This document shows, in pieces, positions 159 to 25,693 of a DNA stretch of 64,000 nucleotides. The DNA lies in the IMG/VR virus record IMGVR_UViG_3300025121_000776, positions 1 to 64,000 of that record; one strand, 5' to 3'. Made by a program: the position numbers and the translations under genes. A model generated the notes under the pieces. The model searched no databases and was not told where the DNA came from. It saw nothing but the letters and a program-made list of their open reading frames with translations. The stretch's first letter is position 1; each line of letters opens with the position of its first letter. This DNA is from a virus.

Positions 159-956
159 ATGAAATTTGTTTCCAACCATTATGTTGCACCAGCCCCATCG
201 TCAATAGAATACGATATACATCCTTTTAAAATTATAGTTCCATTTTATAATGCGGCCAATTTCTTAGAACAGTGTATTAACTCAGCTATTACACAAAAAT
301 ATCCAAACTACAAAGTTATTTTTATTGATGATGCATCTACAGATAACTCCTGGGATTTATTACCACACAGCAATGAAATAACTATTTGCATAAAGAATGA
401 GAAGAATGTAACCGCACTTCCAAATATTCACAAGGCAATAATGGAATATTGTGAACCAAATGACATTGTAGTTTTGCTTGATGGGGATGATTGGTTGCCA
501 AACAAAAATGTACTTAAAATTTTAAATGAAAATTATTGTAGAAATGATTGTTGGATAACTTATGGACAAGCTTCATGGACAGATGGAAGAAGGGGTTTCG
601 CTTCAGAATATTCTCAAATAGAATTTGATAATCTAAGAAAAGCGAACTTTAGAATTTCTCACATAAGAACATTTAAAGCAGGATTATATCAGAAAATAAA
701 AGAACAAGACTCAGATTTTTCTTGTTTAAAAGATAAAAATGGTGATTTTTATAGAATGACATATGATGTGGCGATAATGTGGCCAATAATGGAAATGGCT
801 GGGCTTAGTAGAGTTAAATTCATTGATGAAATATTATACATCTACAATCGAAACAATCCCATTAGTGATGATAAAATGAATCAACAATTGCAATGGGATA
901 TTCATAAAGAAATTTCTCTAAAACAATCATTTAAAAAAATAGAAAATTATGTTTGA
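159..956 (+). CDS. Glycosyltransferase family 2 (GT-A)
   Basis: IIVPFYNA...IDDASTDNS and LDGDDWL motifs; paralog of 1817..2563. Confidence 0.85.
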   Translation: MKFVSNHYVAPAPSSIEYDIHPFKIIVPFYNAANFLEQCINSAITQKYPNYKVIFIDDASTDNSWDLLPHSNEITICIKNEKNVTALPNIHKAIMEYCEPNDIVVLLDGDDWLPNKNVLKILNENYCRNDCWITYGQASWTDGRRGFASEYSQIEFDNLRKANFRISHIRTFKAGLYQKIKEQDSDFSCLKDKNGDFYRMTYDVAIMWPIMEMAGLSRVKFIDEILYIYNRNNPISDDKMNQQLQWDIHKEISLKQSFKKIENYV

Positions 957-1815
957 TTATAAAAAAATAGCAGAAGATAATATAGTTATCATTAAGAATC
1001 CAGAAGAAATATGTGATATTAATTTTTTGATTCCAGTTCGTGGAAGAAGAGAATTTGCAAAACCAATGTATAATAGTTTTTTAAAAGCAAAAGAAAAGTC
1101 AAAACTTAATATTGTATACACAGTAATAGAACATTCTTATATTGCAGAACATGCAAAATTTTGTAAAGATAATAAAATTAACTATATTTGGATTAAATGT
1201 GAAGAAAGTGAACTGTTTAACAAATGCCTATCTTACAATATGGGAGCTTTATATTCAAATATATCTAAATATTTCATTTTTCACGATGTAGATTGCCTTA
1301 TACAATCGGACTTTTTTAACAAAGTAGAATCAAACATTTATAACAATAAATGTAAGGCACTACAATGTTTTCAACAAAGACGTGTCTTGTATTGTGACAT
1401 TGATTTAACAAATGAAATTATTCAAGAAAAAATAAACATAGATGATTTAAGTCTAGGATTTAAAGGAGTAGATTTGCCTAGATTAGGAGGTAAGGTGATG
1501 CTTGGAGCTCCAGGGGGGTCTATAATGGTAGAAAGAGGTTTGTTTTTTGACGTAGGTGGTTATGATGCAGATTTATTTTTAGCTAATTCTCCAGAAGATT
1601 CATATTTTTGGGAAAAAATTGACACTTGGGATAAAATGCATGTAGCCGAAAGTCCCCCAATAGATATTTTTCATATGTATCATCCTCCAACTTATTTCAG
1701 TAATCCATTTATTAATGAAATGAAAGCTATATATGAAGAATTTAAAAATAAATCATCTTTCGAAAAGATAAAACAAATAATAGTGAAAAGCGAACACATA
1801 AAAAAATTCTTATAA
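949..1815 (+). CDS. Putative glycosyltransferase (GT2/GT7 C-terminal-like)
   Basis: LIPVRGR start, FHDVD DxD-like motif, GGS...GGYD...PED and HMYH C-terminal motifs. Confidence 0.65.
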   Translation: MFDYKKIAEDNIVIIKNPEEICDINFLIPVRGRREFAKPMYNSFLKAKEKSKLNIVYTVIEHSYIAEHAKFCKDNKINYIWIKCEESELFNKCLSYNMGALYSNISKYFIFHDVDCLIQSDFFNKVESNIYNNKCKALQCFQQRRVLYCDIDLTNEIIQEKINIDDLSLGFKGVDLPRLGGKVMLGAPGGSIMVERGLFFDVGGYDADLFLANSPEDSYFWEKIDTWDKMHVAESPPIDIFHMYHPPTYFSNPFINEMKAIYEEFKNKSSFEKIKQIIVKSEHIKKFL

Positions 1816-1816
1816 A

Positions 1817-2563
1817 ATGGAAGAAAATCATTTTACGATAATTATAGACGCATGTAATCATGAAAAGTGGATTGAGCAATGTTTAAACACAGCCTTAAAT
1901 CAAAAATATAAAAACTATGAAGTAATTCTCGTTGATGCAAAATCTACAGACAAAACTTTTGAAATAGCAAAAAGATATTCTGAAGAATATTCAAGTTTAA
2001 AAATATTTCAAAATGAAACTCGTGTACCACAAATAGCAAACATGTTATGGTTAACAAAGCTTTCGAAACCAAATACAATTTGTGTTAGTTTAGATGGAGA
2101 CGATTATTTAAATGGAGGTAAGGTATTAAATAAACTTAACAATATTTATAATTCTGGAGATGTTTGGATGACTTACGGAACGTATTGTGAATTTCCATAT
2201 AGAAGTGTTTCTCATATTTACCATGCATATCCAGATAGTGTGATTGCAAGCAATGGATTTAGGGAACACCAATGGCTTGGGTCACACCTAAGAACATATC
2301 GAAGAGAACTTTTCCTTTTAATAGATGAAAAAGACTTCAAATTTAGCGATGGGCGTTGGTTAGATACAGCTGGCGATTTAGCTTTCCAATTTCCAATGCT
2401 TGAAATGTCTGCAGAAAAATCTAGATATATTTCAGAAATTTTATATATTTATAATGTGGCAAATCAAAATAGTGATGGAAATACAAACGCTCCAAGACAA
2501 AGAGAGGTAGAGGCTGTAGTACGAGCAAAAGTAAAATACCAAAGAATCGAAAAAATATATTAG
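1817..2563 (+). CDS. Glycosyltransferase family 2 (GT-A)
   Basis: VILVDAKSTD, LDGDDYL, HLRT motifs; colinear with 159..956. Confidence 0.85.
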   Translation: MEENHFTIIIDACNHEKWIEQCLNTALNQKYKNYEVILVDAKSTDKTFEIAKRYSEEYSSLKIFQNETRVPQIANMLWLTKLSKPNTICVSLDGDDYLNGGKVLNKLNNIYNSGDVWMTYGTYCEFPYRSVSHIYHAYPDSVIASNGFREHQWLGSHLRTYRRELFLLIDEKDFKFSDGRWLDTAGDLAFQFPMLEMSAEKSRYISEILYIYNVANQNSDGNTNAPRQREVEAVVRAKVKYQRIEKIY

Positions 2564-2566
2564 AAT

Positions 2567-3283
2567 ATGATAGTTGGAAACGGAATGTTGGCAAATGCAT
2601 TTAATCAATATATAAATGATGACAAAATCATTATATTCGCATCTGGAGTGTCTAATTCAAAAGAGCAGAATGATAAAGAGTTTGAAAGGGAATTTGAGCT
2701 GCTAAAATCTTTTTCTGTAACACATAAAAAACTGGTATACTTTAGTACATGTAGTATATTTGATGAAAGTCTTTTAGCTTCTAAATACATAAAACATAAA
2801 ATAAAAACAGAGACATTTATAGAAAAGAGCTTCAAAAATTATTTAATCTTAAGATTGCCAAATGTTGTTGGTAAAACAAATAATGCAAACACCTCTTTTA
2901 ATTATTTTAAAAACAAAATTTTGAAAGGGGAACGTTTGGAATTGCAAGAAAACGCCACACGGTATTTCATAGACATTGATGATTTAGCTGCTATTTTACC
3001 TTATATTATTTCTGACGAAAAAGAATTCAATAAAAGTATAAATATTTGTTTTAACAATAAAATTAATGTTATAAATTTAGTCTTATTGCTTGAAAGTTTT
3101 CTTGAAACAAGAATAGATAAGTCCCCAATTGAAGGCGGAAAAGATTACAATGTAGATAATTTATATTTTATGAACATTGTAGGTGATAAAAAAATTAAAA
3201 TAAACAAAGAATATAATAATAACTTAATAAAAAAATATCTAAAAACTAATTATGGGAACAATTATTTACACAGAAATATATAA
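2567..3283 (+). CDS. NAD-dependent epimerase/dehydratase-like (short SDR)
   Basis: IVGNGMLA Rossmann-like start, FASGVSNS, YFSTCS, YxxxK (YIKHK), ILRLPNVVG. Confidence 0.6.
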   Translation: MIVGNGMLANAFNQYINDDKIIIFASGVSNSKEQNDKEFEREFELLKSFSVTHKKLVYFSTCSIFDESLLASKYIKHKIKTETFIEKSFKNYLILRLPNVVGKTNNANTSFNYFKNKILKGERLELQENATRYFIDIDDLAAILPYIISDEKEFNKSINICFNNKINVINLVLLLESFLETRIDKSPIEGGKDYNVDNLYFMNIVGDKKIKINKEYNNNLIKKYLKTNYGNNYLHRNI

Positions 3284-4136
3284 TTGCGGTCTTATTGGCA
3301 AAAAATGTCTTGAAAGTTTTTTTAAATATCACCCAGATATTAAAATCTATGTTGCTGGAACATGTAAAGATTTTAAAGAATTGGGAAAATTTAAAAACAT
3401 AGAATACATAGATTTTACAGGCGATATTAATCTTTTAAATATGTACAAAAACGCAGGTCATTTGGGGACTGCATATATATTTTCAAAAGTTTTAAAAAAC
3501 GAATACGGAGATTATAATAAAATAATACATTTTGATAGTGATGTTATATTTCGTGCAGAATGTTTAAGTTATATATTAGATAAGTTTAGTGAAGGTTACG
3601 ATTTAATAGGACCACGAAGATTGTATGAAAAAAATGAAGCAAATAAAAGCGGACAATATGATGGAATATCCGATGTTGTTGGCACATATTTTTTTGGATA
3701 TAACAATAAAAAAATAACAAACTTTGACTTTAACACAATACATCAAATGGTTGTTGGATATCATAATCCTATTGGATTTCCCGCTATTGATTTTTTTGAC
3801 CCCATATCATTTGATATTTTAAAAAATGGTGGAAAAATATATCATCTGGATTATGAAAAATTTGGGTCTCCAAATGAAAACGCAAACTGGCACAACAAAT
3901 ATGGAGAATTAAATAAAATTATGGATTTTGGAGATAACATAATCCATTTTGCAGGCGTTGGGTCGGGTCAAAATTTTACAAAAAACGGAAATGGTAATGT
4001 TCCATATACATATAGTGAATGGGCAAAGGAAAGATATTCGTTGTATATGAAGCTACTTTATAATGAAGAAATTGGAATTGGGTATAACAAAAATGTGTAT
4101 AAAACTATAAAAGAAGCGCTAAAGGATTTATTATAA
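3252..4136 (+). CDS. Putative GT-A fold glycosyltransferase
   Basis: IIHFDSDVIF DxD motif, late IIHFAGVGS motif; island context. Confidence 0.45.
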   Translation: MGTIIYTEIYNCGLIGKKCLESFFKYHPDIKIYVAGTCKDFKELGKFKNIEYIDFTGDINLLNMYKNAGHLGTAYIFSKVLKNEYGDYNKIIHFDSDVIFRAECLSYILDKFSEGYDLIGPRRLYEKNEANKSGQYDGISDVVGTYFFGYNNKKITNFDFNTIHQMVVGYHNPIGFPAIDFFDPISFDILKNGGKIYHLDYEKFGSPNENANWHNKYGELNKIMDFGDNIIHFAGVGSGQNFTKNGNGNVPYTYSEWAKERYSLYMKLLYNEEIGIGYNKNVYKTIKEALKDLL

Positions 4137-4181
4137 ATTTTCTTAATAAATATATTAATAAAATCAAACACAGCCAACAGC

Positions 4182-4982
4182 ATGAAAACCATTAAAGTAT
4201 ATTGTAGTTTTGGTTGGACTTTTGATTTTGAGCATGAAAAACAAATTGAATTATTTGTGGACATGTATCAGTGCCAATTGGCAAGTAATGATGCTGTAAA
4301 AGTTTTACTTCTTATAGAATCATCCGCAATAATTAAAAACATCATTGAGTCAGCAATTCAAAATCATCATTTATTTGATTATATACTAACTTTTGATGAA
4401 GATGTCTTGAAAAGTTGCAAAAACGCTTATCTTTTTGAGTATGGTACAACATTTCTAAAAGACCCATTTGAATTCACGGAAAAAAAATTTAGTGTATCTA
4501 CAGTAGTTGGTGGAAAGAATGAAACAACAGGACACCTTATGAGGCATAAGTTATGGGAAAGACAAGAACAAATAAAAATTCCTAAAGATTTTTTTTTAAG
4601 CGGAACTTTCCCTGGAGAAATTAAACACGCAAGAAACACACAAACGCTGGGAGTTGAAAAAAACATTTTATTTGACAGCCAATTCCACATAGCAATAGAA
4701 AATATAAAAAGAGATTATTATTTTACAGAAAAGCTTATCGATTGTTTAAAAACAAAAACAATTCCAATATATTATGGAAGCAAGGAAATTGGAAACTACT
4801 TTAATAAGGAAGGAATGTATATTGTCAATAGTGTTGATGAAATAATTGATGTATGTAATAATTTAACGGAAAACACATATAATGAAAAAATTAAATTTAT
4901 TGAAGAAAATTTTGAGAAAAGCAAAAGATTCTGGGACTATAAAGAAGCTATAAAAAACAAACTAAAAGAATTAATTAAATAA
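4182..4982 (+). CDS. GT10-like (fucosyltransferase-like) glycosyltransferase
   Basis: FHIAIEN...YFTEKLIDC...TIPIYYG motif typical of the GT10 C-terminal domain. Confidence 0.7.
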   Translation: MKTIKVYCSFGWTFDFEHEKQIELFVDMYQCQLASNDAVKVLLLIESSAIIKNIIESAIQNHHLFDYILTFDEDVLKSCKNAYLFEYGTTFLKDPFEFTEKKFSVSTVVGGKNETTGHLMRHKLWERQEQIKIPKDFFLSGTFPGEIKHARNTQTLGVEKNILFDSQFHIAIENIKRDYYFTEKLIDCLKTKTIPIYYGSKEIGNYFNKEGMYIVNSVDEIIDVCNNLTENTYNEKIKFIEENFEKSKRFWDYKEAIKNKLKELIK

Positions 4983-4985
4983 AAC

Positions 4986-5900
4986 ATGAAAAAATACAAA
5001 GTAATATGTTTTATAAATTCAGCAGGAATAAATGTTATTTTAAAAAACATAGAAGACACGATGAATTCAATAAAAAATAACATTAATGTTGAGTTTGGGT
5101 TTTATATATGTACAGATACAGAAGATAGAAAAAAAACAATAGACAACATAGTAAAAAAAAACAATCTTAGTAATGTCGTTATTGAGATTGTAGTTAAAAC
5201 CAAAAGTTGGGCTAAAAACTTTAATGAGTTTTTTATAAAATACAAAGATGACGCCGATTATATTTTATGCTCTCATGATGATTTAATTATAAGAACTTTT
5301 GATTTTTTCAATATTACAATGAATGAAATTAGTGGCCATGAAGATGAAATAGGATGGATTGCTTATACATCTGATTCATATTACAGAATATCAAACATAT
5401 CTGTTTGTCAAACCGCTAGAGAAATGTTTTGCAAAGATAGATTTACTTGGCCAAAAACATACGAATTACATAAAATGGAAACTTCTTATAATAAAGATTA
5501 TTTAGATATGCCCCAAAGAACATGTAAAGTTGCTGGGTTTTTCTTGCACTTAAATTTAATAAAAACAGAAAATTTAGAAAAAATAGGATTGTGTCCAGAA
5601 TGGGGAAATTATACATTATTAACAGATGAACATTGGTCTCTTGCAACTTTGGTAAAAAATATGTGGACAGTTTGGGTTCCTCAAGTTTTTTATGACCACC
5701 CCATTAGAGGAAATGAAAGAGTCTTTGTTGGTATACAAAATCAAGCACAAACAGAATCTCAATTTTATAATTTATGGGGATTTGATTATCAATCACCATT
5801 ATCCGATGAAAAAATAAAAGAAGTATGTAACAAGTTTCAAAACACAAACATTGGGTTTTTTAACGATAAAAATACCTATAACTATCAATATTTAAAATAA
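4986..5900 (+). CDS. Putative GT-A fold glycosyltransferase
   Basis: YILCSHDDLII acidic motif, late D-E-H and DHP motifs; island context. Confidence 0.45.
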   Translation: MKKYKVICFINSAGINVILKNIEDTMNSIKNNINVEFGFYICTDTEDRKKTIDNIVKKNNLSNVVIEIVVKTKSWAKNFNEFFIKYKDDADYILCSHDDLIIRTFDFFNITMNEISGHEDEIGWIAYTSDSYYRISNISVCQTAREMFCKDRFTWPKTYELHKMETSYNKDYLDMPQRTCKVAGFFLHLNLIKTENLEKIGLCPEWGNYTLLTDEHWSLATLVKNMWTVWVPQVFYDHPIRGNERVFVGIQNQAQTESQFYNLWGFDYQSPLSDEKIKEVCNKFQNTNIGFFNDKNTYNYQYLK

Positions 5901-5914
5901 TAAACTTTAAAATT

Positions 5915-6652
5915 ATGAAATTACAATTAGAAAATATCATAGATAAACATATTGGACAAAAATGTATTGTGGCAGCACAAGGACCAAGTCTTAATCAATA
6001 CTTAGATAAATTAAGTTCTTTAAAAGATGTGGGGTATACACTTATTTCATGTAACTCATGGCAAGAATTTCACCCAAGTTGTTCTCCTCATTATTGTGTT
6101 TTGGCCAACAATGTAGAAACATGTAAAAGCAAGCTTGATTTGGTTAATCATCATAACATAACGTTAATTTATGCAGATACTGTTGATTTAGTAGACCAAG
6201 ATTGGTTAGAAAAAAATTTAAAAGTTGACTTTTTACCATACGACCAAAGACATTTTGATGGGAAAGAATGTGTTGATTGCAGAACAAGAGCGGGGTGTGA
6301 AAAATATTTTGACCCAAAACGCTTAACAATACAAGAGCAATTACAAAAATATACTGGATTTGATAAACATTATGATTGCGGTAGCACAGTCGCACTACAT
6401 ATGGTAGCAGTTGCCATTTTAATGGGGTTTTCAGATATTTATCTCACGGGGTTAGATTTTAATTACCGTATTGGATATGCATCAAATCTAAGTAATATTC
6501 CAGTCTCAGATTTAAATCATTTTGATATTTATGGTAAAGGAATTTTAGAAGATATGGAAATTATTGCCAAATCAGCTGAAAAAAAAGGTGTTAAAATATA
6601 TAATTTAAATAAAAATTCACACTGGAAAATTTTTAATTATATTGAAATTTAA
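5915..6652 (+). CDS. DUF115 / Maf-like (MptE-like fold) protein, candidate ulosonate transferase
   Basis: IVAAQGPSLN, ISCN, STVALHMVAVAILMGFSDIYLTGLDF, IYNLN motifs. Confidence 0.7.
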   Translation: MKLQLENIIDKHIGQKCIVAAQGPSLNQYLDKLSSLKDVGYTLISCNSWQEFHPSCSPHYCVLANNVETCKSKLDLVNHHNITLIYADTVDLVDQDWLEKNLKVDFLPYDQRHFDGKECVDCRTRAGCEKYFDPKRLTIQEQLQKYTGFDKHYDCGSTVALHMVAVAILMGFSDIYLTGLDFNYRIGYASNLSNIPVSDLNHFDIYGKGILEDMEIIAKSAEKKGVKIYNLNKNSHWKIFNYIEI

Positions 6653-6653
6653 T

Positions 6654-6715: not shown

Positions 6716-7510
6716 ATGAAAAAGCATATAAATTTAATTGCATATGACAATTATGAAACAATTGACTCCAAAGAGGCTATTGAAAAATATAGAAAAGAAA
6801 AGATAAATGGGGTGAAAGGGTCAATTGAGTTTATACAAAACATTTTTTTAAAAAAACAAATTGACAAACTAAATGTTTTAGAAATTGGTTCTGGAAACTC
6901 AAAAGTACTATACGCATTAGAAGAACATGCTATATTAAATAGTGGAATAGGTATAGAGGTCAGCAAAAGCAGATTCGAATTTGCAGAAAAGTGGAAGCGT
7001 GACATGAATTTTAATAAAACTACTAATATAAATAAAAATATTTTTGATATAAATTTTGAAAAAATTAAAAATATTGATTTATGTATAGGATTTGATTTAG
7101 TTTTTCAATTTTTTCTTCCAATGGGCGAAAATTTTGATTATAACATTTTAAAAAAAATTTATAATTCATTAAAAACTGATGGGGTTTTAATTCTAGAATT
7201 ATCAAATTTAACTCAAATGAAAAATAAAAAAACATGGGACGAATTTTATGAGCCAGACCCATGGAGATTTTCTTTGTGGAACTGTCAATATGATGAAGAA
7301 AAGGAGTTTTTACAGTGGGACAAATATTTTATTCACAGAACCGAAGCAAAAATAGATAAAACATCAATTGTATTAAAGCAATATTCAAAAAAACAAATAG
7401 AAACACTTCTTAAATCTGTTGGATTTAAAAACATAAGTTTCTGTGGAAATTTAAATGATGACAAGTATGTTGGAAAAGAATTTGAGTTTGTAGTAATGGG
7501 AGAAAAATAA
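6716..7510 (+). CDS. Class I SAM-dependent methyltransferase
   Basis: VLEIGSGNS motif I, GIEVS, LKTDGVLILE. Confidence 0.8.
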   Translation: MKKHINLIAYDNYETIDSKEAIEKYRKEKINGVKGSIEFIQNIFLKKQIDKLNVLEIGSGNSKVLYALEEHAILNSGIGIEVSKSRFEFAEKWKRDMNFNKTTNINKNIFDINFEKIKNIDLCIGFDLVFQFFLPMGENFDYNILKKIYNSLKTDGVLILELSNLTQMKNKKTWDEFYEPDPWRFSLWNCQYDEEKEFLQWDKYFIHRTEAKIDKTSIVLKQYSKKQIETLLKSVGFKNISFCGNLNDDKYVGKEFEFVVMGEK

Positions 7511-18389: not shown

Positions 18390-18926
18390 GTGGAACAATT
18401 TACTGGATTAAAGCACCCAATACAAAATTATCCGTTTAGACAAGCTTTAGGCGTGGTAAAATACTTGATACCATATATAAAAAATAAATCTGTATGTGAT
18501 TTAGGTTGTGGATGTGGAGACATCCTTGTGGAAATGCAGAAACATGCCAAGTCAATAGTTGGAATTGAAAATGATTTAAGATTTAAACAAGCAATAGAGG
18601 ATGTTGAAGAAGAAAGGAAATTTATTATATGGGGCGATTTGTTTGAAGTGGATATTCCAAAATGTGACGTTTACTTTATTTGGATATCATCAGATAAAAA
18701 GATGAATGAAAAAATAATAAACCTATTAGAAGAAGGTGTTATAATAATTGACCCTACAATTAGATTGGATTTATTTTCAGGAAATAAAAATTTAGAATTG
18801 ATTGATACAATTGAGTGCAGTTATGATGAAAGTGAGTATATCGGATTTGATGATATTATTATTGACGGAAATCCATTCCCCTCAATTGGAGAGCGCAAAT
18901 TCAAAATTTATAAAAAAATTTCCTAA
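18390..18926 (+). CDS. Class I SAM-dependent methyltransferase
   Basis: VCDLGCGCGD motif I, VGIEND; GTG start. Confidence 0.7.
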   Translation: MEQFTGLKHPIQNYPFRQALGVVKYLIPYIKNKSVCDLGCGCGDILVEMQKHAKSIVGIENDLRFKQAIEDVEEERKFIIWGDLFEVDIPKCDVYFIWISSDKKMNEKIINLLEEGVIIIDPTIRLDLFSGNKNLELIDTIECSYDESEYIGFDDIIIDGNPFPSIGERKFKIYKKIS

Positions 18927-18928
18927 GT

Positions 18929-20882
18929 GTGTCAAAAAAATACTCAATACAACTAGTTCAGTTTAATAACAAATATGGTTCACAAGTTTACCTACCATAT
19001 AGCATTGGGATTTTATCTAGTTATGCTTTAGCAGATAAGGAAATTTTAGACAAATTTGAATTTAAAGAATTTATTTCTATTATAGAAAGTGTTCCCGACT
19101 TAGTAAAAAAAATAGGACATTCTTGGAATTTCTTGTTATAATTGGAATTGGGAATTAAGTTTAAAATTGGCAGAAGAAGTAAGAAAAACAAATCCCAATT
19201 GTTTAATAATTATGGGTGGTCCACAAATTCCTAATGAAATTTCTAATTTTTTTGAACTACACCCATTTGCTGATATTGCTGTGCATGGAGAGGGAGAAGT
19301 GACTTTTCATGAAATATTAAAAAAATATTCTTCAGACCTAAGCAATCTTAAAAAAATACCTGGAACCACATTTTATGACAGAAAAAATAATAAAGTTATA
19401 AAATCTTTACACAGGGATATAATTTCTGACCTTAATATTATACCCTCACCTTACTTAAGTGGAATATTTGACAAGTTGTTGGATGATAGAGAATATGCAT
19501 GGATGATAACCTGGGAAACTAATCGTGGATGTCCGTTTAAATGTACTTTTTGCGATTGGGGTTCGGCCACAGAATCTAAAGTTAGAAAATTTGATAACGA
19601 TAGATTATTAAAAGAATTGGATTATTTTTCAGAAAAAAAAGTTGAACTTATATTTGGAGCAGATGCTAATTTTGGCATATTCAAAAGAGATAAAGAATAC
19701 GCAATAAGAATGGCCGACAACAAAGAGAAGTGTGGATATCCAAAACAATTTAGAGTTTGTTTTACAAAGAACTCTACAGATAAAGTTTTTGAGTTATCTC
19801 AAATTTTTGATAAAGCTAGAATGAACAAAGGGGTGTCAATAAGTATGCAGTCCTTAAACACACAAACTTTACAAAACATCCAAAGGACAAATATAAAAAT
19901 GGATTTTTTCAATGAGTTGCAAAAAAGATATAATGCGCATGGGCTTACTACATATACTGAATTGATTTTACCACTTCCAGGAGAAACTTATGAATCATTT
20001 ATTGATGGAATAGATTTACTTCTTGACAATTCACAACATTCTGGAATTGTTGTTTATAATTGTGTGGTAATGCCAAACGCAAAGATGGGAAATGCGCAAT
20101 ACAAAGAGAAATTCGGCTTAAAAACAACAAAAATCCCCATCTTCCAAGCTCACTCTGATTTTAAAAATTCATTTGATGTAATAGAAAAAGAAGAACTTGT
20201 TATTGAAACTAAAACTATGAATAAGTTTGATTATATAAAGTCTTTTAAGTATAGTTGGATAGTTCAGAGCATGCATATGTTGGGGACTTTGCAAATTGTT
20301 GCCATTGTATTTAGATATCATTTTGGAATTAAATATTCAGAATTTTATAAAGGAATTTTAGAATATGGAAAATTAAATCCCCAGACTATAATTGGAAAGG
20401 AAATTAAAAAAATTGATGAAATATTAAATGGAGTATTGGGTGGAAATGGGTTTGAACAAGAGATTGAAGAGTTTGAATCTATAGTTTGGCCACCAGAAGA
20501 AGCTACATATTTAAGAGTTTCTGAAAATATTGACAATTTTTATTCAGAAATAGGAGATTTTCTGTACAAAAAGTATCACAACCTTTTTAAAGACAATGAA
20601 ATTCTAAACGATATATTAAAATATCAAAAAATAATAAATGTAAGATTTGACAACCAATCTAATAAAACAATTTCTTTATCTTATGACATTCATAATTTTT
20701 TTGAAGATTGTAGAGTGGGAATTTTTAATGAACTCGAAAAAAAAGAAGTCAGCATCTCAATTTTTCCAAGCACATCATTTAAAAACAAAAAAGACTTTTC
20801 AAGAGAAGTCGTTTGGTATGGGAGAAAAGGAGGAAAATTTTTCCACTCAGCAAAAGAAATAACAAAAGTTAACACAATATGA
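18929..20882 (+). pseudogene. Cobalamin-binding radical SAM enzyme split by a frameshift near 19113-19116
   Basis: 18929..19141 encodes the B12-domain start (YLPYSIGIL); the +1 frame from 19116 reads DILGISCYNWNWELSLKLAEE into the 19167..20882 ORF with NRGCPFKCTFC. Confidence 0.75.
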
Positions 20883-21673
20883 AACAGATTATAAATTCTT
20901 ACACATATCCAGACTTCCCAAATATAGAAGTTGATTATAAAAAACAAATAAGATTTTTTGTTGATGGGTTTGAGGGCTATTACGTAAATGAAGATAGTTT
21001 TAAAATACTAATGGTAAAAGAGGTTGAAGAAATATGTAAACTTAAAAAAGTTGTAATAGAAAATCAACATATGTTTGACGCTATATTAACTTATGATGAA
21101 GATATTTTAAATAATTGTAAACATTCATATTTTATGCCATTTGGTACCACCTGGATTCACGATTATAAGTTTCCAGAAAAAAAATTCCAAGTATCAAATA
21201 TTACAGGACACAAAGAATTTACAAATGGACATTTGTTGAGAAAAAAAATACATTATAAACAAAAAAGCATAACAACCCCAACAGATTTTTATATAAGTAA
21301 ATTTCTTGGAGTAGAAAATTTTAATAATAACAAAATACTTGGAGAGTTTAAAGACCCCCTTTTTGACTCACAATTTCATATTTGCATAGAGAACTCAAGG
21401 CAGAAAAATTGTTTTACAGAAAAAGTAATGGATTGTTTTGTTACAAAAACAGTTCCCATATACTGGGGATGTCCAAATATTGGAGATTTTTTTGACACAG
21501 ACTCAATTTTCATCGTTAATAATTTTAAAGAGATTATAGACTGTTGCAACAACTTAACATCAGAAACTTATCAAAATATGCTTCCGTCAATAGAAAAAAA
21601 CCTTGAGCTATCAAAAAACTATTCTGATTCAGTCGATAATATTAAAAAAATACTCAAAAAGATTTTATATTAA
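20879..21673 (+). CDS. GT10-like glycosyltransferase, paralog of 4182..4982
   Basis: FHICIEN...CFTEKVMDC...TVPIYWGC motif. Confidence 0.7.
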   Translation: MKQIINSYTYPDFPNIEVDYKKQIRFFVDGFEGYYVNEDSFKILMVKEVEEICKLKKVVIENQHMFDAILTYDEDILNNCKHSYFMPFGTTWIHDYKFPEKKFQVSNITGHKEFTNGHLLRKKIHYKQKSITTPTDFYISKFLGVENFNNNKILGEFKDPLFDSQFHICIENSRQKNCFTEKVMDCFVTKTVPIYWGCPNIGDFFDTDSIFIVNNFKEIIDCCNNLTSETYQNMLPSIEKNLELSKNYSDSVDNIKKILKKILY

Positions 21674-21714
21674 AAATAATTTTTATTATATTCTATAAAA
21701 ATTATTTTTAATAT
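21667..21714. repeat. Perfect 20-bp AT-only inverted repeat spanning the GT10 stop and GT11 start
   Basis: ATATTAAAAATAATTTTTAT (21667-21686) / ATAAAAATTATTTTTAATAT (21695-21714), 8-nt loop; includes TAA 21671-21673 and the AT of ATG 21713. Confidence 0.75.
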
Positions 21715-22501
21715 GGATAAAGTATCTGCAAAACTTAAGGGCGGATTGTGTAATTACATGTTTCAAATAGCATGTGCGTATTCTTATTCTATAAAAAACA
21801 ACAAAGAGTGTTTTTTTACAACAGATGATTCTGTGGTAAGGCACAATCATGTAGATAATTATAAAAACAATGTTTTAAATAATGTAGTTTTTCTTAACAC
21901 CTACAACTTCAATTCTTTTGCAAAGTATAATGAGCCTCATTATTACTATACAGAAATTCCTAGTTTTAATGATAATGTATATTTAGATGGAGATTTTCAA
22001 AGTGAAAAACACTTTAAGAAAAATGAAAAAGAAATTAAAACACTTTTTTCTTACCCCAACGAAGTAGTAAGTAAAATTGTAAACAAATGGGAGCATTTAC
22101 TAAAAAAAGAAACATGTTCTATTCACATAAGAAGAGGAGATTATCTAAAATATCAAGATGCTTATACAATTTTGGGTTTAGATTATTATTTAAAAGCGTC
22201 TGAACAAATGCCAGAAAATAGTATTTTTCTCATTTTTTCCGATGATTTACAATGGTGTAAAGACAATTTTCCAGAAATTCCAGAAAAATTTATTTTTATA
22301 GAGTCACAAAAGGATTATGAAGATTTATTGCTCATGTCTTTGTGTAAAAATAACATAATTTCAAATTCATCATTTTCTTGGTGGGCAGCCTGGCTTAACT
22401 CAAATGAAAATAAAATTGTCATAGCTCCAAATAAATGGTTTAGTGTTAAGTCTTCTTATAATACTAAAGATTTGTATTGTGATAATTGGATAAAATTATA
22501 A
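21713..22501 (+). CDS. GT11 alpha-1,2-fucosyl/colitosyltransferase
   Basis: LKGGLCNYMFQ, YLDGDFQSEKHF, SIHIRRGDY, FLIFSDD..WC, IISNSSFSWWAAWL. Confidence 0.85.
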   Translation: MDKVSAKLKGGLCNYMFQIACAYSYSIKNNKECFFTTDDSVVRHNHVDNYKNNVLNNVVFLNTYNFNSFAKYNEPHYYYTEIPSFNDNVYLDGDFQSEKHFKKNEKEIKTLFSYPNEVVSKIVNKWEHLLKKETCSIHIRRGDYLKYQDAYTILGLDYYLKASEQMPENSIFLIFSDDLQWCKDNFPEIPEKFIFIESQKDYEDLLLMSLCKNNIISNSSFSWWAAWLNSNENKIVIAPNKWFSVKSSYNTKDLYCDNWIKL

Positions 22502-22510
22502 ATTAAATAT

Positions 22511-23434
22511 ATGAAAGCAATAGTAACAGGCTCAAATGGGCTTTTAGGCTCAGCGTTAAAAAACAATTTAGGAGAGGGACATATTTATCACACTAGACAA
22601 AATTGTGATTTATTAAGAACAAACGAGGTAAATTCTTATTTCTCAGAATTAAGCAGTAAAAATCCCCCAGATACAATTATACATTGTGCAGCAAGAGTTG
22701 GGGGCGTACAAGCCAATATGGATAATAATAAAGGCTTTTTCTTAGAAAATCTTTATATAAATAATGCCATAATTGGCGCAGCAGTTGTTTATGATTATAA
22801 AAATGTTGTAAATATTTTATCTACCTGTATTTTTCCAGACAAAGAGGTTATATATCCACTGACCGCAGACCAAATTGATAACGGGACTCCCCACCCATCA
22901 AATCATGGCTATTCTTATTCAAAAAGACTTTTATATCATTCCACAAGATACTGCAGAGAGGTTACGGGAAACAATTGGATTTCTATTATTCCAAATAATA
23001 TTTATGGAGAAAATGATAACTTTAATTTAGAAAAAGGTCACCTGGTTCCTGCTTTAATAAGAAAAGCGCATGAGGCATCTATTTCTGGGGAAGATTTTAT
23101 TGTATGGGGAGATGGAACTCCATTGAGACAATTTTTATATTCAGATGACCTGGCAAAAGTTATTTTGTGGGCTATTGAAAATTGGGATTCTGGCGTTCCT
23201 ATGATGGCTGTAAACGAAACTGAGTATTCTATTAAACAAATCGTAGATGTCATCGCAAATCGCTTTAAAATAAGCCAGGATAGAATTAAATATGATATTA
23301 CCAAACCAAAAGGACAATTTAGAAAACCAGCCAAGTCAGATATCCCAAAAGAATTCAAACTTACAGGAATTGAAGAAGGGTTAAACAAAACAATAGATTG
23401 GTATTTAAAAAACATAAATAACTTTAGAAAATAA
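22511..23434 (+). CDS. fcl: GDP-L-fucose synthase / ColC-like epimerase-reductase
   Basis: TGSNGLLGSA, HCAARVGG...N, STCIFP, YSYSKR, PNNIYG..DNF, HLVPALIRK, WGDGTPLRQFLYSDD. Confidence 0.85.
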   Translation: MKAIVTGSNGLLGSALKNNLGEGHIYHTRQNCDLLRTNEVNSYFSELSSKNPPDTIIHCAARVGGVQANMDNNKGFFLENLYINNAIIGAAVVYDYKNVVNILSTCIFPDKEVIYPLTADQIDNGTPHPSNHGYSYSKRLLYHSTRYCREVTGNNWISIIPNNIYGENDNFNLEKGHLVPALIRKAHEASISGEDFIVWGDGTPLRQFLYSDDLAKVILWAIENWDSGVPMMAVNETEYSIKQIVDVIANRFKISQDRIKYDITKPKGQFRKPAKSDIPKEFKLTGIEEGLNKTIDWYLKNINNFRK

Positions 23435-23435
23435 T

Positions 23436-24602
23436 ATGGCAAAAATTACTTTAGTAAGCGATACAATTAACAGGGAAGATGTTAATGCTTTAATAGAATG
23501 GTTACAACAAGACCCAATTCCAAGGCTAACAAAAGGTGACCTCACCGTTTCGTTAGAAAAAAAATGGGCAAAAAAAGTTGGAACAAAATATTCTGTATTT
23601 GTAAACTCTGGTTCATCGGCTATTTTGTTATTATTAGCAGCGTTAAAAGAAACTGGAAAATATAGCAACAAAATAATATGTCCAACCCTTAGCTGGATAA
23701 CAGATATAAGTTCTCCTATATTACTTGGATTTGAACCTATATTGTGTGATTGCAATTTGGAAGATTTATCTTGTGATTTAAACAATTTAGAACAAATATT
23801 CAAAGAAAACCAGGGCGATAAACCAATGCTGTTTATTTCTGTATCTCCTTTAGGAATAGTGCCTAAGATGAAAGAAATTCTAGAATTGTGTGAAAAATAT
23901 AATGTAAAATTATTAGAAGATAATTGTGAAAGTATGGGGTCTAAATATAGTGGGCAGATGCTTGGCTCATTTGGTTTAGCATCTGTTTATAGTATGTATT
24001 TTGGACACCATATCTCAACAATTGAAGGGGGTCTTATAAATACCAGTGATGATGAACTAAATACGATTTTGTTAGCAATGAGAAGTCATGGATGGAATAG
24101 AGATTTGTCATCTGAAGCCAAACAAAGCTTAAAAAAAGAATGGAATACTTCTGACTTTGACGAATTGTATTGTTTTTATTATCCAGGATTAAATCTACGT
24201 TCCACAGACGTTCAAGCATTTATTGGATTAAGGGCAATAGAAAAATTAGATTCTTATAGCGTGCTTCGCAATAGAAATTTTTGCTATTATCAAGATTTAA
24301 TAAAAAATAATAAGCTTAAGCTAGAAAATAGAGAAAGCTCATTTATTTCAAATCTTGGATACCCAGTAATTCACAAAGAAAGAAATGCTATTGTGGATGA
24401 ATTACAAAAAAACAAGATAGAAGCTAGACCATTAATAGCAGGCTCAATAGCTAATAAGCCGTTCTGGATAAAAAGATATGGAAAAACTACATTCCCGAAT
24501 GCAGATATAGTAGATAAGTTTGGACTTTATTTACCAAATCATCAAGATTTATCTTTGGAAGACATAACTTTTATTTCAAATATTATTAATAAATTTTCCT
24601 AA
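23436..24602 (+). CDS. colD: ColD-like GDP-4-keto-6-deoxymannose 3-dehydratase (DegT fold, His in place of catalytic Lys)
   Basis: [29 protein letters not shown] (H at the Lys position), RSHGWNRD without the E1 GRDCxC Fe-S motif. Confidence 0.75.
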
Positions 24603-24661
24603 TTTTATCTTTAATTTATTATTTTCTGTTGCTATATTTTAATTGTTTAAACATAAAATAT

Positions 24662-25693
24662 ATGCAAAAGAAAGTTTTAATATTTGGAATTACAGGTCAA
24701 GATGGTTCGTATTTATCTGAATTGCTATTAGAAAAAAATTATGAAGTTCATGGAGTGATTAGAAGAAGTAGTTCTTTTAACACAAGAAAAATAGACCACA
24801 TTTACGATAAATTAAAATTACATTACGGAGATGTAACTGACCCCCTTGTAATTTCTAATCTACTTGATAAAATACGCCCAGATGAAGTTTATAATCTTGC
24901 CGCACAATCACATGTTCAAGTGTCTTTTGAAATTCCGTATTATACGGGGCAAGTAGATGCAATAGGAACGTTAAACATTTTAGAAGCAATAAAAAACCAT
25001 TGCCCCAAATCAAAGTTTTACCAAGCATCAACTTCCGAGCTCTTTGGCAAAGTTCAAGAAACTCCACAAAAAGAAACAACTCCATTTTATCCAAGAAGTC
25101 CATATGGTGTAGCAAAGTTATACGGATATTGGATTGTAAAAAACTTTAGAGAAGCTTATGGAATGTTTGCGTGCAACGGAATTCTATTTAATCATGAAAG
25201 TCCAAGGCGTGGATTGACTTTTGTCACCAGGAAAATTACATCCGAATTAGTAAGAATAAAGTACGGTGACAAAACTACTACATTAAAACTTGGAAACTTA
25301 GAGGCACAAAGAGACTGGGGGCACGCAAAAGAATACGTGGAAGGAATGTGGAGAATGTTACAACAAAACGAACCAGAAGATTTTGTATTGGCTACTGGAA
25401 AACTCTGTTCCGTTAGACAATTCATTGAACTTGCTGCAAAAGAATTGGATTATGAGATTGAATGGATAGGTGATGGAATAGATGAAAAAGGATATGACAA
25501 AATAACTGGTAAATTATTAGTTGAGATTGACCCAAAATATTTTAGACCAACAGAAGTTGACTTGCTTTTGGGAGACGCTACCAAAGCAAAAGAGAAGTTG
25601 GGCTGGGAACCAAAAATAAAATTTGAAGACTTGGTTAAAGAAATAATAAAAGGCGACATTGAACAACTTGTAAATTATGGAAAAATAGAATAA
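24662..25693 (+). CDS. gmd: GDP-mannose 4,6-dehydratase
   Basis: [59 protein letters not shown]; ATG at 24662 preferred over TTG 24629. Confidence 0.95.

Follow-up and report, generated by a model that had tools for sequence, protein, structure and literature searches.

A mosaic glycan-synthesis island in a large uncultured phage without recognisable membrane export genes

Some 30 genes, spread over about 25 kb of a large uncultured phage, form a glycan-synthesis gene set that belongs to the phage itself. Broadly similar large clusters of sugar genes have been described before in big phages. Here, we tentatively propose a cassette-swappable pathway leading to a decorated hetero-oligosaccharide, most likely carried by proteins of the phage particle, a proposal to which we give somewhat less than an even chance.

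The island and its neighbourhood

The stretch analysed here (the window) comprises the first 64 kb of a 186,855-bp contig. The original prediction placed the island at 159-25693, and 28 plus-strand ORFs of 141-571 aa are indeed tightly packed there, with only eight spacers of at least 25 nt between them. However, this range leaves out a gene cut by the contig start, so that the island begins before base 159, as well as two glycosyltransferase genes at 32299-34396. The Pfam search assigned 25 of the 28 ORFs to glycosyltransferase, nucleotide-sugar or tailoring families, in keeping with the earlier view that nearly all of them encode glycan enzymes, and three (4986, 13590 and 15093) had no match. 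The island is delimited by the following genes:

2-157, plus strand: 3' end of the first island gene (a 29th), cut by the contig start; frame 2 open to the stop
25747-27306, plus strand: T5 A1-like phage gene, the right-hand boundary (phrog_1745, E 9e-136)

The truncated gene aligns to the C-terminal part of the first island gene of G001, a 291-kb relative estimated as 91% complete, with 95% identity over the last 43 nt; that first gene encodes 266 aa, and its product has no Pfam match. On the other side, A1-like homologs are present in 1129 phage records, and the contig also carries gp25-like and gp6-like baseplate wedge genes, a RuvC-like resolvase and a primase, so that the A1-like gene adds to the phage genes (baseplate, resolvase, primase) recognised at the outset.

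The contig begins within a gene and has no terminal repeat, which might suggest a fragment of a bacterial O-antigen or capsule locus misassembled onto phage DNA. However, sugar genes lie directly against the A1-like gene in nine syntenic IMG/VR contigs from nine metagenome datasets, the far side of the G001 island is bounded by HNH, PhoH and other phage genes, leaving phage genes on both sides, and composition is constant across the join, with a uniform GC content of 27-31% over the island and the phage genes. An artefact is thus extremely improbable, and the chimeric join at 25.7 kb that had been named as a possible refutation is contradicted by the same junction in nine independent contigs.

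The search of related phage genomes called for earlier thus recovered the locus in these nine contigs, with varying content. G001 keeps the end modules and a NeuB, radical SAM and GT42-like core, and lacks about 10 of the window's island genes. L003, the nearest relative by flanking gene (A1-like protein 87% identical), has transketolase, HAD, FkbM and RmlD-type genes instead. In these comparisons, the island is a mosaic of conserved end modules around swappable middle modules.

Transferases, activated sugars and tailoring enzymes

Pfam places GT2 or GT2-like enzymes at 159, 949, 1817 and 15845, with a weak match at 3252, GT10-like enzymes at 4182 and 20879, and a GT11 enzyme at 21713:

159-956, plus strand: GT2 glycosyltransferase (PF00535, 68.2 bits; 80% identity to the G001 homolog)
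949-1815, plus strand: GT2-like glycosyltransferase (PF10111, 30.1 bits against a cut-off of 27.3; 78% identity in G001)
1817-2563, plus strand: GT2 glycosyltransferase (PF00535, 65.9 bits; 87% identity in G001)
3252-4136, plus strand: probable GT-A protein (weak GT2 match, PF00535 E 0.0096, under cut-off; 80% identity in G001)
4182-4982, plus strand: GT10-like (fucosyltransferase-type) glycosyltransferase (PF00852, 28.6 bits)
15845-16633, plus strand: GT2 glycosyltransferase (PF00535, 60.3 bits)
20879-21673, plus strand: GT10-like glycosyltransferase (PF00852, 27.2 bits)
21713-22501, plus strand: GT11 (alpha-1,2-fucosyl/colitosyl-type) glycosyltransferase (PF01531, 91.4 bits)
32299-33483, plus strand: GT4 (GT-B) glycosyltransferase outside the island (PF00534, 33.2 bits)
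33458-34396, plus strand: divergent GT2-family (GT-A) protein beside the GT4 (start uncertain, ORF opens at 33335)

In G001, the homologs of the 3252 ORF and of the gene that follows it form a single, fused 556-aa ORF. The GT10-like protein at 20879 shows 59-76% identity to its homologs in L003, L004, L014 and L015, those of L006 and L013 being more distant. No other protein of the neighbourhood is as conserved as the GT4, which shows 64-84% identity across eight syntenic relatives, and 44% in a further one, L006, the most distant, and has no homolog in GenBank phages. Its neighbour has no Pfam match itself, but 37 of the 54 relatives recovered by a profile search match PF00535; its AF2 model is poor (pLDDT 48.5), with only a Rossmann-like N-terminal domain recognisable. 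A sigma-like gene and the baseplate module lie shortly downstream of this pair, which occupies 32.3-34.4 kb.

The right end of the island encodes enzymes that, together with the GT11 transferase, make up a GDP-colitose set:

22511-23434, plus strand: Fcl/ColC-like GDP-4-keto-6-deoxy-sugar reductase (SDR; PF01370, 139 bits; GDPFucSynFcl 178.6 bits against a cut-off of 500)
23436-24602, plus strand: ColD-type GDP-4-keto-6-deoxymannose 3-dehydratase (DegT-family; best PDB match ColD/WbdK 2GMS, E 5e-53)
24629-25693, plus strand: GDP-mannose 4,6-dehydratase, Gmd (PF16363, 479 bits)

The signature of the second enzyme is a histidine in the place of the aminotransferase lysine, since its motif HHISTIEGG aligns with HHIATMEGG of ColD.

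A CMP-ulosonic-acid set consists of a NeuB-like synthase, a cytidylyltransferase and a transferase of GT42/Maf fold, the synthase being adjoined by a radical SAM enzyme:

5915-6652, plus strand: minimal sialyltransferase-fold (GT42/Maf-type) transferase (MptE/Maf-type PF01973, 44.6 bits, above cut-off)
7510-8178, plus strand: CMP-sugar-acid cytidylyltransferase, PseF/NeuA/KdsB class (PF02348, 78.4 bits; best NCBIfam match PseF, 79 bits, far under the equivalog cut-off)
11908-12705, plus strand: radical SAM/SPASM enzyme (PF13186 and PF04055; conserved next to NeuB; 67% identity in G001)
12761-13585, plus strand: NeuB-type ulosonic-acid synthase, short form lacking a SAF domain at the C-terminus (PF03102, 216 bits; NeuB_NnaB 230 bits and PseI 170 bits, both under cut-off; 81% identity in G001)

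Judged by recognisable enzymes, this pathway is incomplete, as neither a PseB/LegB-type dehydratase nor a NeuC-type epimerase was found in the contig. The AF2 model of the 5915 protein (pLDDT 94.4) has CstII/CstI as its best Foldseek matches (E 1e-7, TM about 0.5), and Maf 5MU5 is matched at E 5e-6, from which the protein is presumed to be an ulosonic-acid transferase. Full-length Maf proteins, whose substrate is flagellin, have flanking domains that this 245-aa enzyme lacks, and it is as close or closer to CstII, whose acceptor is lipo-oligosaccharide.

The remaining island genes are tailoring enzymes or proteins awaiting a family:

2567-3283, plus strand: short SDR/epimerase-family protein (PF01370, 28.6 bits, profile positions 66-240 only)
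4986-5900, plus strand: protein without family assignment (no Pfam match at E up to 0.1, no PDB match, no homolog in G001 or its island)
6716-7510, plus strand: SAM-dependent methyltransferase (PF13847, 32.4 bits)
8171-9499, plus strand: class-III PLP aminotransferase (PF00202, 283.9 bits; reaches no equivalog)
9478-9903, plus strand: VOC/glyoxalase-fold protein (PF13669, 36.8 bits)
9900-11288, plus strand: B12-binding radical SAM enzyme (PF02310 and PF04055)
11328-11930, plus strand: GmhA-like sedoheptulose-7-phosphate isomerase, SIS domain (PF13580, 91.5 bits; TIGR00441 188.8 bits, cut-off 209)
13590-15071, plus strand: 493-aa protein with a probable sulfotransferase-like region (no Pfam match itself)
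15093-15842, plus strand: protein without family assignment (no Pfam match, no PDB match)
16636-17178, plus strand: methyltransferase, Methyltransf_24 (PF13578, 28.3 bits)
17180-18373, plus strand: PseC/LegC-class nucleotide-sugar aminotransferase (DegT-family; PF01041, 262.7 bits; PseC 226 bits, under cut-off)
18390-18926, plus strand: probable methyltransferase (weak; several families, E 1e-3 to 1e-2, all under cut-offs)
18929-20882, plus strand: KedN5-like B12 radical SAM C-methyltransferase, split by a frameshift (NF033712, 272 bits)

Remote relatives of the 13590 protein carry PF13469 or PF00685, and some bear the name sulfotransferase. The last gene lies in two ORFs, a conserved one of 70 aa (18929-19141) and one of 571 aa (19167-20882), and the intact 656-aa G001 protein aligns with it in two frames that switch near an A8 run at about 19103-19112; the 70-aa ORF thus appears to be the frameshifted N-terminus of the 19167 radical SAM gene. 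By Pfam, the island holds three radical SAM enzymes (9900, 11908, 19167) and three methyltransferases (6716, 16636, 18390).

With two B12 radical SAM enzymes (one KedN5-like), a SPASM radical SAM enzyme, class-III and DegT aminotransferases, a VOC protein and several methyltransferases, this set recalls the sugar tailoring of secondary metabolites. The product could then lie off both particle and envelope, as a free oligosaccharide, a glycosylated small molecule or a glycan on cytoplasmic host proteins, serving to take over the host or to fight competitors, and none of the searches points to an acceptor. However, about ten glycosyltransferases, including GT10, GT11 and GT42-type enzymes, would yield an oligosaccharide typical of surface glycoconjugates, and an aglycone pathway, a carrier and an exporter are all absent, which makes this explanation unlikely.

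Export machinery and the acceptor of the glycan

In a Kyte-Doolittle scan (19-residue window), no island protein has two or more hydrophobic segments, and the two single-segment matches are core helices of soluble folds, in the 5915 model and in a PLP enzyme. Over the full 186,855 bp of the contig, a single protein is multi-pass, namely a cation-efflux (CDF) transporter. The Bac_transf and Glycos_transf_4 profiles, representing both PGT superfamilies, found nothing in the contig or in the 91% complete G001, where nothing past the far island boundary resembles a flippase, polymerase or PGT. The absence of multi-pass and lipid-carrier machinery, originally claimed for the island, is therefore borne out and extended to G001, and the export genes whose presence just upstream of the window had been named as a possible refutation have no counterpart beyond that far end. 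An 8-TM protein of G001 resembles a tape measure protein, which is a lead only.

We infer the composition of the product, its inner and outer parts and, above all, its acceptor as follows. Rare activated sugars would be made and then joined into a decorated hetero-oligosaccharide at the cytoplasmic face of the membrane. Host GDP-mannose would be converted by Gmd, ColD and the Fcl/ColC-like reductase to GDP-colitose, while the NeuB-type synthase and the cytidylyltransferase would provide a CMP-activated ulosonic acid; amino, C-methyl and O-methyl derivatives are likely, and sulfated ones possible. About ten soluble transferases (GT2, GT10, GT11, GT42/Maf-fold) would join these sugars. An invariant inner part may come from the GT4 and GT2-like pair at 32.3-34.4 kb, and the outer part would then be added by the variable island. 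The most likely acceptor would be at least one protein of the phage particle itself; such proteins need no flippase, polymerase or lipid carrier because they fold and assemble in the cytoplasm and exit by lysis. Particle glycosylation in Chlorovirus and Mimivirus sets a precedent. Another is the cytoplasmic self-glycosylation of mycobacteriophage capsid and tail-tube proteins, as far as described in the summary of Freeman et al. (2023) given in PMC12619734. In the structural region, the protein at 52092-53801 has a Ser/Thr-rich linker (20 S/T in 40 residues) and is a possible candidate acceptor.

The position of the island does not favour a virion-protein acceptor, since it lies beside the early-type A1-like gene, outside the virion module, and lacks a late-like motif: TATTTATA occurs 20-32 nt upstream of 23 genes, mostly at 35-112 kb, the region with recognisable baseplate genes, and in none of the eight island spacers. 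Also counted against this proposal are the frameshifted radical SAM gene, the incomplete ulosonic-acid pathway and the short, CstII-like transferase.

The extension of undecaprenyl-linked glycans is also the work of soluble or peripheral transferases, so that missing export genes are compatible with the use of host machinery. Of the original reading, a phage with a very large glycan set and no membrane machinery stands, whereas its cytoplasmic acceptor was an inference. The phage's soluble transferases could instead extend undecaprenyl-linked intermediates of the host (O-antigen, capsule or the general O-glycan of Bacteroidota), the host supplying the initiating transferase, the flippase or ABC transporter, and the ligase or oligosaccharyltransferase, and exporting the product; during a long infection, this might block superinfection or keep progeny off debris. 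We consider such envelope remodelling a serious possibility, although on the improbable side. The island's place beside an early-type gene without the late-like motif fits it, as does the likeness of the 5915 transferase to CstII, an enzyme acting on lipo-oligosaccharide. To our knowledge, colitose is known from bacterial O-antigens only, in line with remodelling. A further point in its favour is a similar soluble cluster of 13 genes in the cultured cyanomyovirus ACG-2014f, whose ColD-like gene is 32% identical to the window's. Flippases and polymerases are usually specific, and those of the host would have to accept a foreign, often-swapped glycan of about ten sugars. Moreover, classical seroconverting phages have membrane proteins (GtrA/GtrC types), of which this phage has none. 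Remodelling is the standing interpretation of analogous transporter-free clusters in cyanomyoviruses, such as P-SSM2 (24 genes; PMC1079782) and S-SCSM2R (22 genes, 13 glycosyltransferases; PMC12801897), and in jumbo phages in general (PMC7824862), but this literature demonstrates such a function for no lytic phage.

Phage DNA had been offered as another acceptor, in which case the island would hypermodify hydroxymethylated bases with glycans. The phage has a thymidylate-synthase-family gene, and according to bioRxiv 10.1101/2023.12.21.572611, phage glycosyltransferases are able to attach various glycans to DNA as hypermodifications. However, the thymidylate-synthase-family protein is ThyA-like, matching genuine thymidylate synthases best (E 2e-66) and retaining the uracil-specifying Asn in its QRSAD..NIA motif; no Tet/JBP dioxygenase was found in the contig or G001, by a profile equally silent in control genomes; the window's GT4 has no homolog among GenBank phages, those with known DNA glucosyltransferases included; and ten fucosyl- and sialyl-transferase-type enzymes are unlike DNA modification systems. 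DNA is thus a very unlikely acceptor, and that alternative goes unsupported.

The mosaic variation of the island is as expected of a surface-exposed antigen under diversifying selection. A phage without membrane export genes of its own would most likely coat its own particle with sugar, or else borrow the export machinery of its host.

The phage contig and its glycan-synthesis island

The viral record, whose first 64 kb form the window, is a contig of 186,855 bp with 29.6% GC, in which neither a direct nor an inverted terminal repeat is present and whose completeness is estimated by CheckV at 57%. GC stays flat, at 27-31%, over the island of glycan-synthesis genes and the phage genes alike. 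Besides a tail-assembly-like gene, the contig carries the genes listed below. The PHROGs search named few genes across 29-60 kb, leaving the majority without a name, and a Megablast search of 40-62 kb against GenBank phages gave zero matches.

Landmark genes of the contig
25747-27306: T5 A1-like gene (phrog_1745, E 9e-136)
40856 and 41250: gp25-like and gp6-like baseplate wedge genes (PHROGs)
60947: RuvC-like resolvase
61835: primase
124596-125549 (G000:C1:124596-125549; L001:4597-5550): CDF cation-efflux transporter (PF01545, 130.9 bits; 73% identity in the syntenic relative G001)

The nearest deposited relatives of the A1-like protein belong to Maribacter and Flavobacterium phages (41-42% identity), which hints, by sequence relationship, at a Bacteroidota host. 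The phage may fall in or near the moraphages, a recently named set of freshwater jumbo phages that infect Bacteroidota and have four core orthogroups of glycosyltransferases (PMC12619734).

Two further observations concern the contig. A thymidylate-synthase-family protein (G000:C1:93702-94967; L038:1498-2763) is 421 aa long, whereas the solved enzymes have 264-316 aa, and aligns with these in four separate stretches, so that insertions would lie at about residues 160-185, 239-282 and 349-383. Between a zinc-ribbon/DUF723-like gene on the minus strand (27293-28582) and the next gene, a stretch of 576 bp (28583-29158) holds no ORF of at least 80 aa.

The island comprises 28 plus-strand ORFs within 159-25693, most of them abutting or overlapping, and 25 of these are assigned by Pfam to glycan-building families. 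Nucleotide-sugar genes are clustered with glycosyltransferases, as in O-antigen and capsule loci. Since no NCBIfam equivalog cut-off is reached, the island enzymes are considered divergent, with their enzyme classes still consistent.

Enzyme classes of the island (159-25693, plus strand)
GT2 or GT2-like transferases: four firm and one weak (Pfam)
Other transferases: two GT10-like, one GT11, one PF01973 (MptE/Maf-type)
Sugar-acid and heptose-type enzymes: cytidylyltransferase, NeuB, GmhA-like SIS protein
PLP-type enzymes: two DegT-family and one class-III aminotransferase
SDR-type enzymes: two SDR enzymes and GDP-mannose 4,6-dehydratase (Gmd)
Radical SAM enzymes: three, two of them B12-dependent and one SPASM
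Tailoring enzymes: three methyltransferases and one VOC protein

The ORF at 13590-15071 has no Pfam match, and its remote relatives carry sulfotransferase domains; PDB sequence searches with 4986-5900, 15093-15842 and, outside the island, 33335-34396 gave nothing usable. The gene of a KedN5-like B12 radical SAM enzyme (18929-20882) is represented by ORFs of 70 and 571 aa in different frames, and by a single intact ORF of 656 aa in G001. The frame switches close to an A8 run (about 19103-19112), and this could be either an assembly error or a genuine frameshift. At 3252-4982, a GT2-like and a GT10-like gene are separated by a 45-nt spacer, and G001 has a single 556-aa ORF in their place (G001:C1:203370-205040), so that, judging from the two sequences, two transferases would have been fused or split naturally.

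Locus boundaries and exchange of cargo among relatives

The original prediction held that this phage encodes a glycan factory without export or lipid-carrier machinery, acting on a cytoplasmic acceptor. Two sequence-level objections bear on it, namely that the island is chimerically joined to phage genes at 25.7 kb, and that genes for a flippase, a polymerase or an initiating phosphoglycosyltransferase (PGT) lie just beyond the far end of the island. An IMG/VR scan using the A1-like protein, followed by one using its alignment, resulted in 18 loci. In ten of them, from nine different contigs, synteny with the window extends to both sides of A1 (L003, L004, L006, L013, L014, L015, L018, L019 and L023, with L005 duplicating L003); the other eight have A1 alone in common. 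Sugar genes lie immediately upstream of A1 in every syntenic locus, and the block downstream of A1 common to these loci contains homologs of 29655, the glycosyltransferase GT4 (32299-33483), 33335, 34353, 35465, 35851, 37324 and 37972. The same junction in nine contigs rules against a chimeric join.

The far side of the island is provided by G001 (locus L004), a relative of 290,886 bp and 91% completeness that is collinear, in reverse, with our contig from about 208 to about 28 kb; this collinearity implies that our contig is missing roughly 110 kb of the full genome. The island of G001 spans 189.8-208.9 kb and has one extra plus-strand gene ahead of the homolog of 159-956; the 3' end of this extra gene corresponds to the truncated gene at 2-157 of the window. 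Past this gene, on the opposite strand, G001 encodes an unknown protein, an HNH endonuclease, PhoH, a homing-endonuclease-like protein, a GT1-like protein and an ADP-ribosylglycohydrolase, and none of the products of these genes beyond the island is membrane-bound. No flippase, polymerase or PGT gene is thus found beyond the far end in this 91% complete genome. Synteny across A1 and the far-side boundary in G001 therefore dispose of both objections. The island is real, well bounded and owned by the phage, and the explanation that a fragment of a bacterial locus was misjoined to phage DNA has become exceedingly improbable.

Conservation with respect to G001 is concentrated at the ends of the island, with 53-87% identity over 159-4982 and 59-83% over 18929-25693. 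A conserved core consists of the GT42-like gene (69%), the SPASM radical SAM gene (67%) and NeuB (81%). About ten genes have no counterpart in G001 (those starting at 4986, 6716, 8171, 9478, 11328, 13590, 15093, 16636, 17180 and 18390), and three further ones have counterparts at only 29-35% identity. Gmd adjoins A1 in G001, L013, L014, L015, L018, L019 and L023, and homologs of GT11, of the reductase and of the ColD-like protein are present wherever the sequence of the relatives extends that far, also in L006, though there without a Gmd match. The closest relative by A1 (L003/L005, 87% identity) is devoid of this colitose set, and carries instead an SIS protein, a split transketolase, a HAD phosphatase, DUF3431, DegT, an RmlD-like reductase, an FkbM methyltransferase, a GT10-like protein and a lysine-aminomutase-like radical SAM enzyme. 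A constant position with a cargo that is exchanged among relatives represents the same pattern as in O-antigen and capsule loci.

Donor pathways and lipid-carrier machinery

Two sugar modules can be distinguished in the island. The first is a putative colitose set, recognisable from Gmd, ColD, an Fcl-like reductase and GT11. Gmd matches PF16363 with 479 bits over its full length. The best PDB matches of the protein at 23436-24602 are ColD/WbdK (E 5e-53), and its motif HHISTIEGG aligns to HHIATMEGG, with a His at the position of the aminotransferase Lys, which is the signature of the ColD 3-dehydratase. For ColC the candidate is an Fcl-like SDR (178.6 bits, where the Fcl equivalog cut-off is 500), and its location between ColD and GT11 fits this role.

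The second module relates to ulosonic acids. It includes a PEP-condensing synthase of NeuB type in its short form (PF03102, 216 bits), a CMP-activating cytidylyltransferase (PF02348, 78 bits), both lacking equivalog-level assignment, and a PseC-like aminotransferase. The steps ahead of the synthase would require a 4,6-dehydratase (PseB/LegB) or a 2-epimerase (NeuC), together with an N-acetyltransferase and a hydrolase. A 2-epimerase of NeuC type is not detected in the contig (no PF02350 match), and for the PseB/LegB-type 4,6-dehydratase the sole PF02719-like match in the contig is Gmd itself; three island ORFs without assignment could fill these gaps in the pathway. NeuB-like genes occur in 3 of 50,697 GenBank phage records, no cyanophage being among them, and our literature search returned no description of phage-encoded ulosonic-acid glycosylation.

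The transferase of this module would be the protein encoded at 5915-6652, which carries a PF01973 (MptE/DUF115) domain (44.6 bits against a cut-off of 34.6) and matches none of the 50,697 GenBank phage records. Its 245-aa model consists of one domain with a pLDDT of 94, and Foldseek ranks CstII/CstI (E 1e-7, TM about 0.5) above 5MU5, a Maf structure (E 5e-6, TM 0.50). All 24 relatives found, in a search restricted to 134-429 aa, have 184-329 aa. The exact protein (P0084) is listed on six contigs, the longest of 540,462 bp, so that this phage may also have been assembled at greater length, or as a concatemer.

A close parallel to this second module is found in the Maf flagellin islands of Campylobacter, Aeromonas, Clostridium and Magnetospirillum, in which protein glycosylation takes place in the cytoplasm and needs neither lipid carrier nor flippase. 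These islands share with that of the phage a NeuB/PseI-type synthase, a CMP-activating enzyme, a PseC-type aminotransferase, a PF01973 transferase and methyltransferases. However, the phage transferase does not have the full-length Maf architecture, since it has 245 aa and no flanking domains, while the solved Maf chain (5MU5) has 632 residues, and the phage island carries many extra GT2, GT10 and GT11 enzymes.

Regarding membrane proteins, a simple Kyte-Doolittle hydropathy scan, as opposed to a trained predictor, found at most one hydrophobic segment in any island protein, and when extended to all ORFs of the contig it returned the CDF transporter as the sole multi-pass protein. Initiating transferases of the PglC type have a single re-entrant helix. 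As these would slip past such a scan, both PGT superfamilies were searched by profile: PF02397 and PF00953 (the WbaP/PglC Bac_transf type and the WecA type) have no match, at E up to 0.1, in our contig or in G001, both profiles being positive in 10-13 control genomes. Among the G001 proteins, at least five hydrophobic segments are found only in the CDF homolog and in a 1105-aa protein with eight TM segments. Over its C-terminal half, the 1105-aa protein is similar to tape measure proteins (ESM Atlas 0.93), a resemblance to be taken as a lead only. G001 also encodes two small proteins with three hydrophobic segments each. By the hydropathy scan, neither of the two genomes encodes a flippase, polymerase, ligase, chain-length regulator or ABC permease/transporter. 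The predicted lack of multi-pass membrane proteins and of an initiating transferase in the island is hence borne out by both kinds of search. This sets the phage apart from the Gram-negative Wzx/Wzy or ABC O-antigen and capsule loci, such as those of the colitose-containing E. coli O55 and O111, which have the same Gmd, ColD, ColC, GT11, GT2 and NeuB-type modules and are likewise mosaic and swappable, but rely on an initiating phosphoglycosyltransferase, flippase, polymerase, chain-length regulator or ABC transporter.

Conserved transferases and the acceptor of the glycan

GT4 (32299-33483), located outside the island, is the most conserved protein of the neighbourhood, with 64-84% identity in eight relatives, and has zero matches among GenBank phages. 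The ORF that follows (33335/33458-34396) takes its GT2 label solely from the Pfam matches of its profile-search relatives, 37 of the 54 family members matching GT2. Its model is poor (pLDDT 48.5), with VIA-align matches of a generic Rossmann-like kind (Z up to 8.7), and hhalign against the island GT2 proteins is not significant (probability 3%). In all relatives (nine related loci) this ORF opens about 140-150 nt inside the 3' end of GT4, in the +1 frame, and the tblastn alignments of both GT4 and the next ORF cross the overlap at 33335-33483. This may be only nucleotide conservation, with the true start at 33458, the alternative being a conserved overlap or a frameshift fusion. Upstream, adjoining GT4, the 360-aa product of 31156-32238 has 37-38% identity in the closest relatives, against 76-84% for its flanks, and no homolog is detected in more distant relatives; by this comparison it would be a local hypervariable gene.

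The next gene, 34353-35423, encodes a conserved 356-aa protein with ESM Atlas similarity of 0.98 to phage sigma factors and with Sigma70_r2 on 21% of one cluster; it is possibly a late sigma factor, the resemblance being a lead only. The run of baseplate genes comes after it. In 23 genes, the majority at 35-112 kb and nine of them in the baseplate stretch at 35-61 kb of the window (e.g., 35443, 40829, 50709, 56375 and 58448), the motif TATTTATA precedes the start codon by 20-32 nt. It is not found upstream of the eight island genes that have a spacer, of A1 or of GT4. The late promoter of T4 is TATAAATA and, by likeness to it, TATTTATA is likely to be a late-promoter-type element. Another motif class, CCCC..TTCTTTATA, dominates 130-180 kb. 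A shared promoter AATAAATATA, 37-40 nt upstream of 4182, 31156 and 32299, was rejected, since its placement is not conserved among relatives and three instances do not suffice.

The mechanism is well supported up to the step at which the glycan meets its acceptor. For this last step we tentatively favour virion or other phage proteins. Particles are assembled in the cytoplasm and leave by lysis, so that a particle protein could be glycosylated without any export step. In line with this, the near-complete G001 brings no export genes, frequent exchange of cassettes would strain the specificity of the host flippase and polymerase, and the two conserved transferases adjoin the late module. Giant viruses offer a precedent for particle glycosylation. 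A search for Ser/Thr-rich tails on particle proteins gave one linker and nothing decisive: the 569-aa protein of the structural region encoded at 52092-53801 (minus strand) has 24% Ser/Thr and a mucin-like linker at about residues 133-185 (20 S/T per 40 residues), followed by a C-terminal domain, and from its composition it is conceivable as an O-glycosylation substrate.

Against an acceptor on the particle stands the possibility, somewhat doubtful in our view, that the host envelope is remodelled by transferases acting on host lipid-linked glycans. Extending transferases of this kind are soluble in any case, the substrate of CstII is a lipo-oligosaccharide, and the island adjoins an early-type gene (A1-like). 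This is also how the literature interprets cyanophage and jumbo-phage clusters, without experiments (PMC1079782, PMC7824862, PMC12801897). A free or other product is unlikely. Phage DNA as the acceptor is very improbable and finds no support: no Tet_JBP match was found (a profile positive in no control genome either), the thymidylate-synthase-family protein appears ThyA-like, with the Asn conserved, although its sequence taken by itself would also be compatible with a dUMP hydroxymethylase, and GT4 has no homolog in GenBank phages.

The cyanomyovirus clusters termed 'LPS' or cell-wall clusters (P-SSM2, S-SCSM1/S-SCSM2R and ACG-2014f) likewise consist of soluble glycosyltransferases, NDP-sugar dehydratases or epimerases, an aminotransferase, and methyl- and sulfotransferases in a large myovirus, and the co-occurrence on one contig of contiguous soluble genes of this type with gp25-like and gp6-like baseplate genes is as in large-myovirus clusters. 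Their content differs among related phages and their acceptor is unknown (PMC1079782, PMC12801897). Soluble transporter-free clusters have been known since P-SSM2, with 24 such genes (PMC1079782), and S-SCSM2R has 22, including 13 transferases (PMC12801897). In the cultured ACG-2014f phages the cluster comprises 13 genes, and the one inspected has no annotated transporter. It includes a ColD-like gene, the sole cluster gene compared, which shares 32% identity over 99% of its length with that of the island. In contrast to these clusters, the island is bigger, with 29-30 genes in a single block, adds a NeuB-type synthase, a cytidylyltransferase, a GT42/Maf-fold transferase, three radical SAM enzymes and the colitose set, and belongs to a phage whose suspected host, from the Flavobacterium and Maribacter phage relatives of A1, is in the Bacteroidota.

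A second precedent for glycosylated particles is that of mycobacteriophages, where, according to Freeman et al. 2023 as summarised in PMC12619734, soluble phage glycosyltransferases modify capsid and tail-tube subunits in the cytoplasm. The island differs in comprising about 30 genes, full donor pathways included, outside the head/tail module. The mycobacteriophages reportedly have a few glycosyltransferases, with host-made sugar donors. The clusters of giant viruses (Mimivirus/Megavirinae fibrils, chloroviruses) encode pathways for rare bacterial-type sugars, have about 6-12 genes, vary across related lineages, and build, in the cytoplasm and independently of the secretory machinery of the host, particle glycans that have been determined chemically. 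However, these viruses infect eukaryotes and their virions are unrelated to those of this bacterial phage.

Taking the particle as acceptor, a fuller picture can be proposed, still more tentatively: a clade of phages of about 300 kb, probably infecting Bacteroidota, would build, entirely in the cytoplasm, an O-antigen-like, serotype-variable heteroglycan on their own particle proteins. Colitose and a sialic-acid-like ulosonic acid would be among its sugars, and the glycan would be methylated and perhaps also sulfated. Two conserved 'core' transferases would start it, and a swappable island of 20-25 kb would complete it.

Soluble transporter-free glycan clusters in large myoviruses are already known. 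What sets the present locus apart is the scale, the colitose set, the ulosonic-acid module with a sialyltransferase-fold enzyme, the three radical SAM enzymes, the mapping of both locus boundaries, and the exchange of cassettes among close relatives. Big sugar-gene clusters recur in large phages, and in the literature surveyed no target has been determined for the lytic ones. The present locus makes a clean case, being fixed between known phage genes, with its content exchanged among close relatives and with a near-complete relative lacking export machinery. If the glycan is on the particle, these phages would have their own 'serotypes', with a bearing on adsorption, grazing, immune recognition and phage engineering. 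If it is on the host surface, a lytic phage would rewrite an O-antigen-like coat through the exporters of its host, with a bearing on superinfection exclusion. In both cases, the island supplies enzymes for rare sugars, among them colitose, ulosonic acids and sugars with C-methyl groups. Should the fuller picture of a particle glycan be true, it would be to bacterial viruses what fibril glycosylation is to giant viruses, and no more complex glycosylation of a phage virion would be known.
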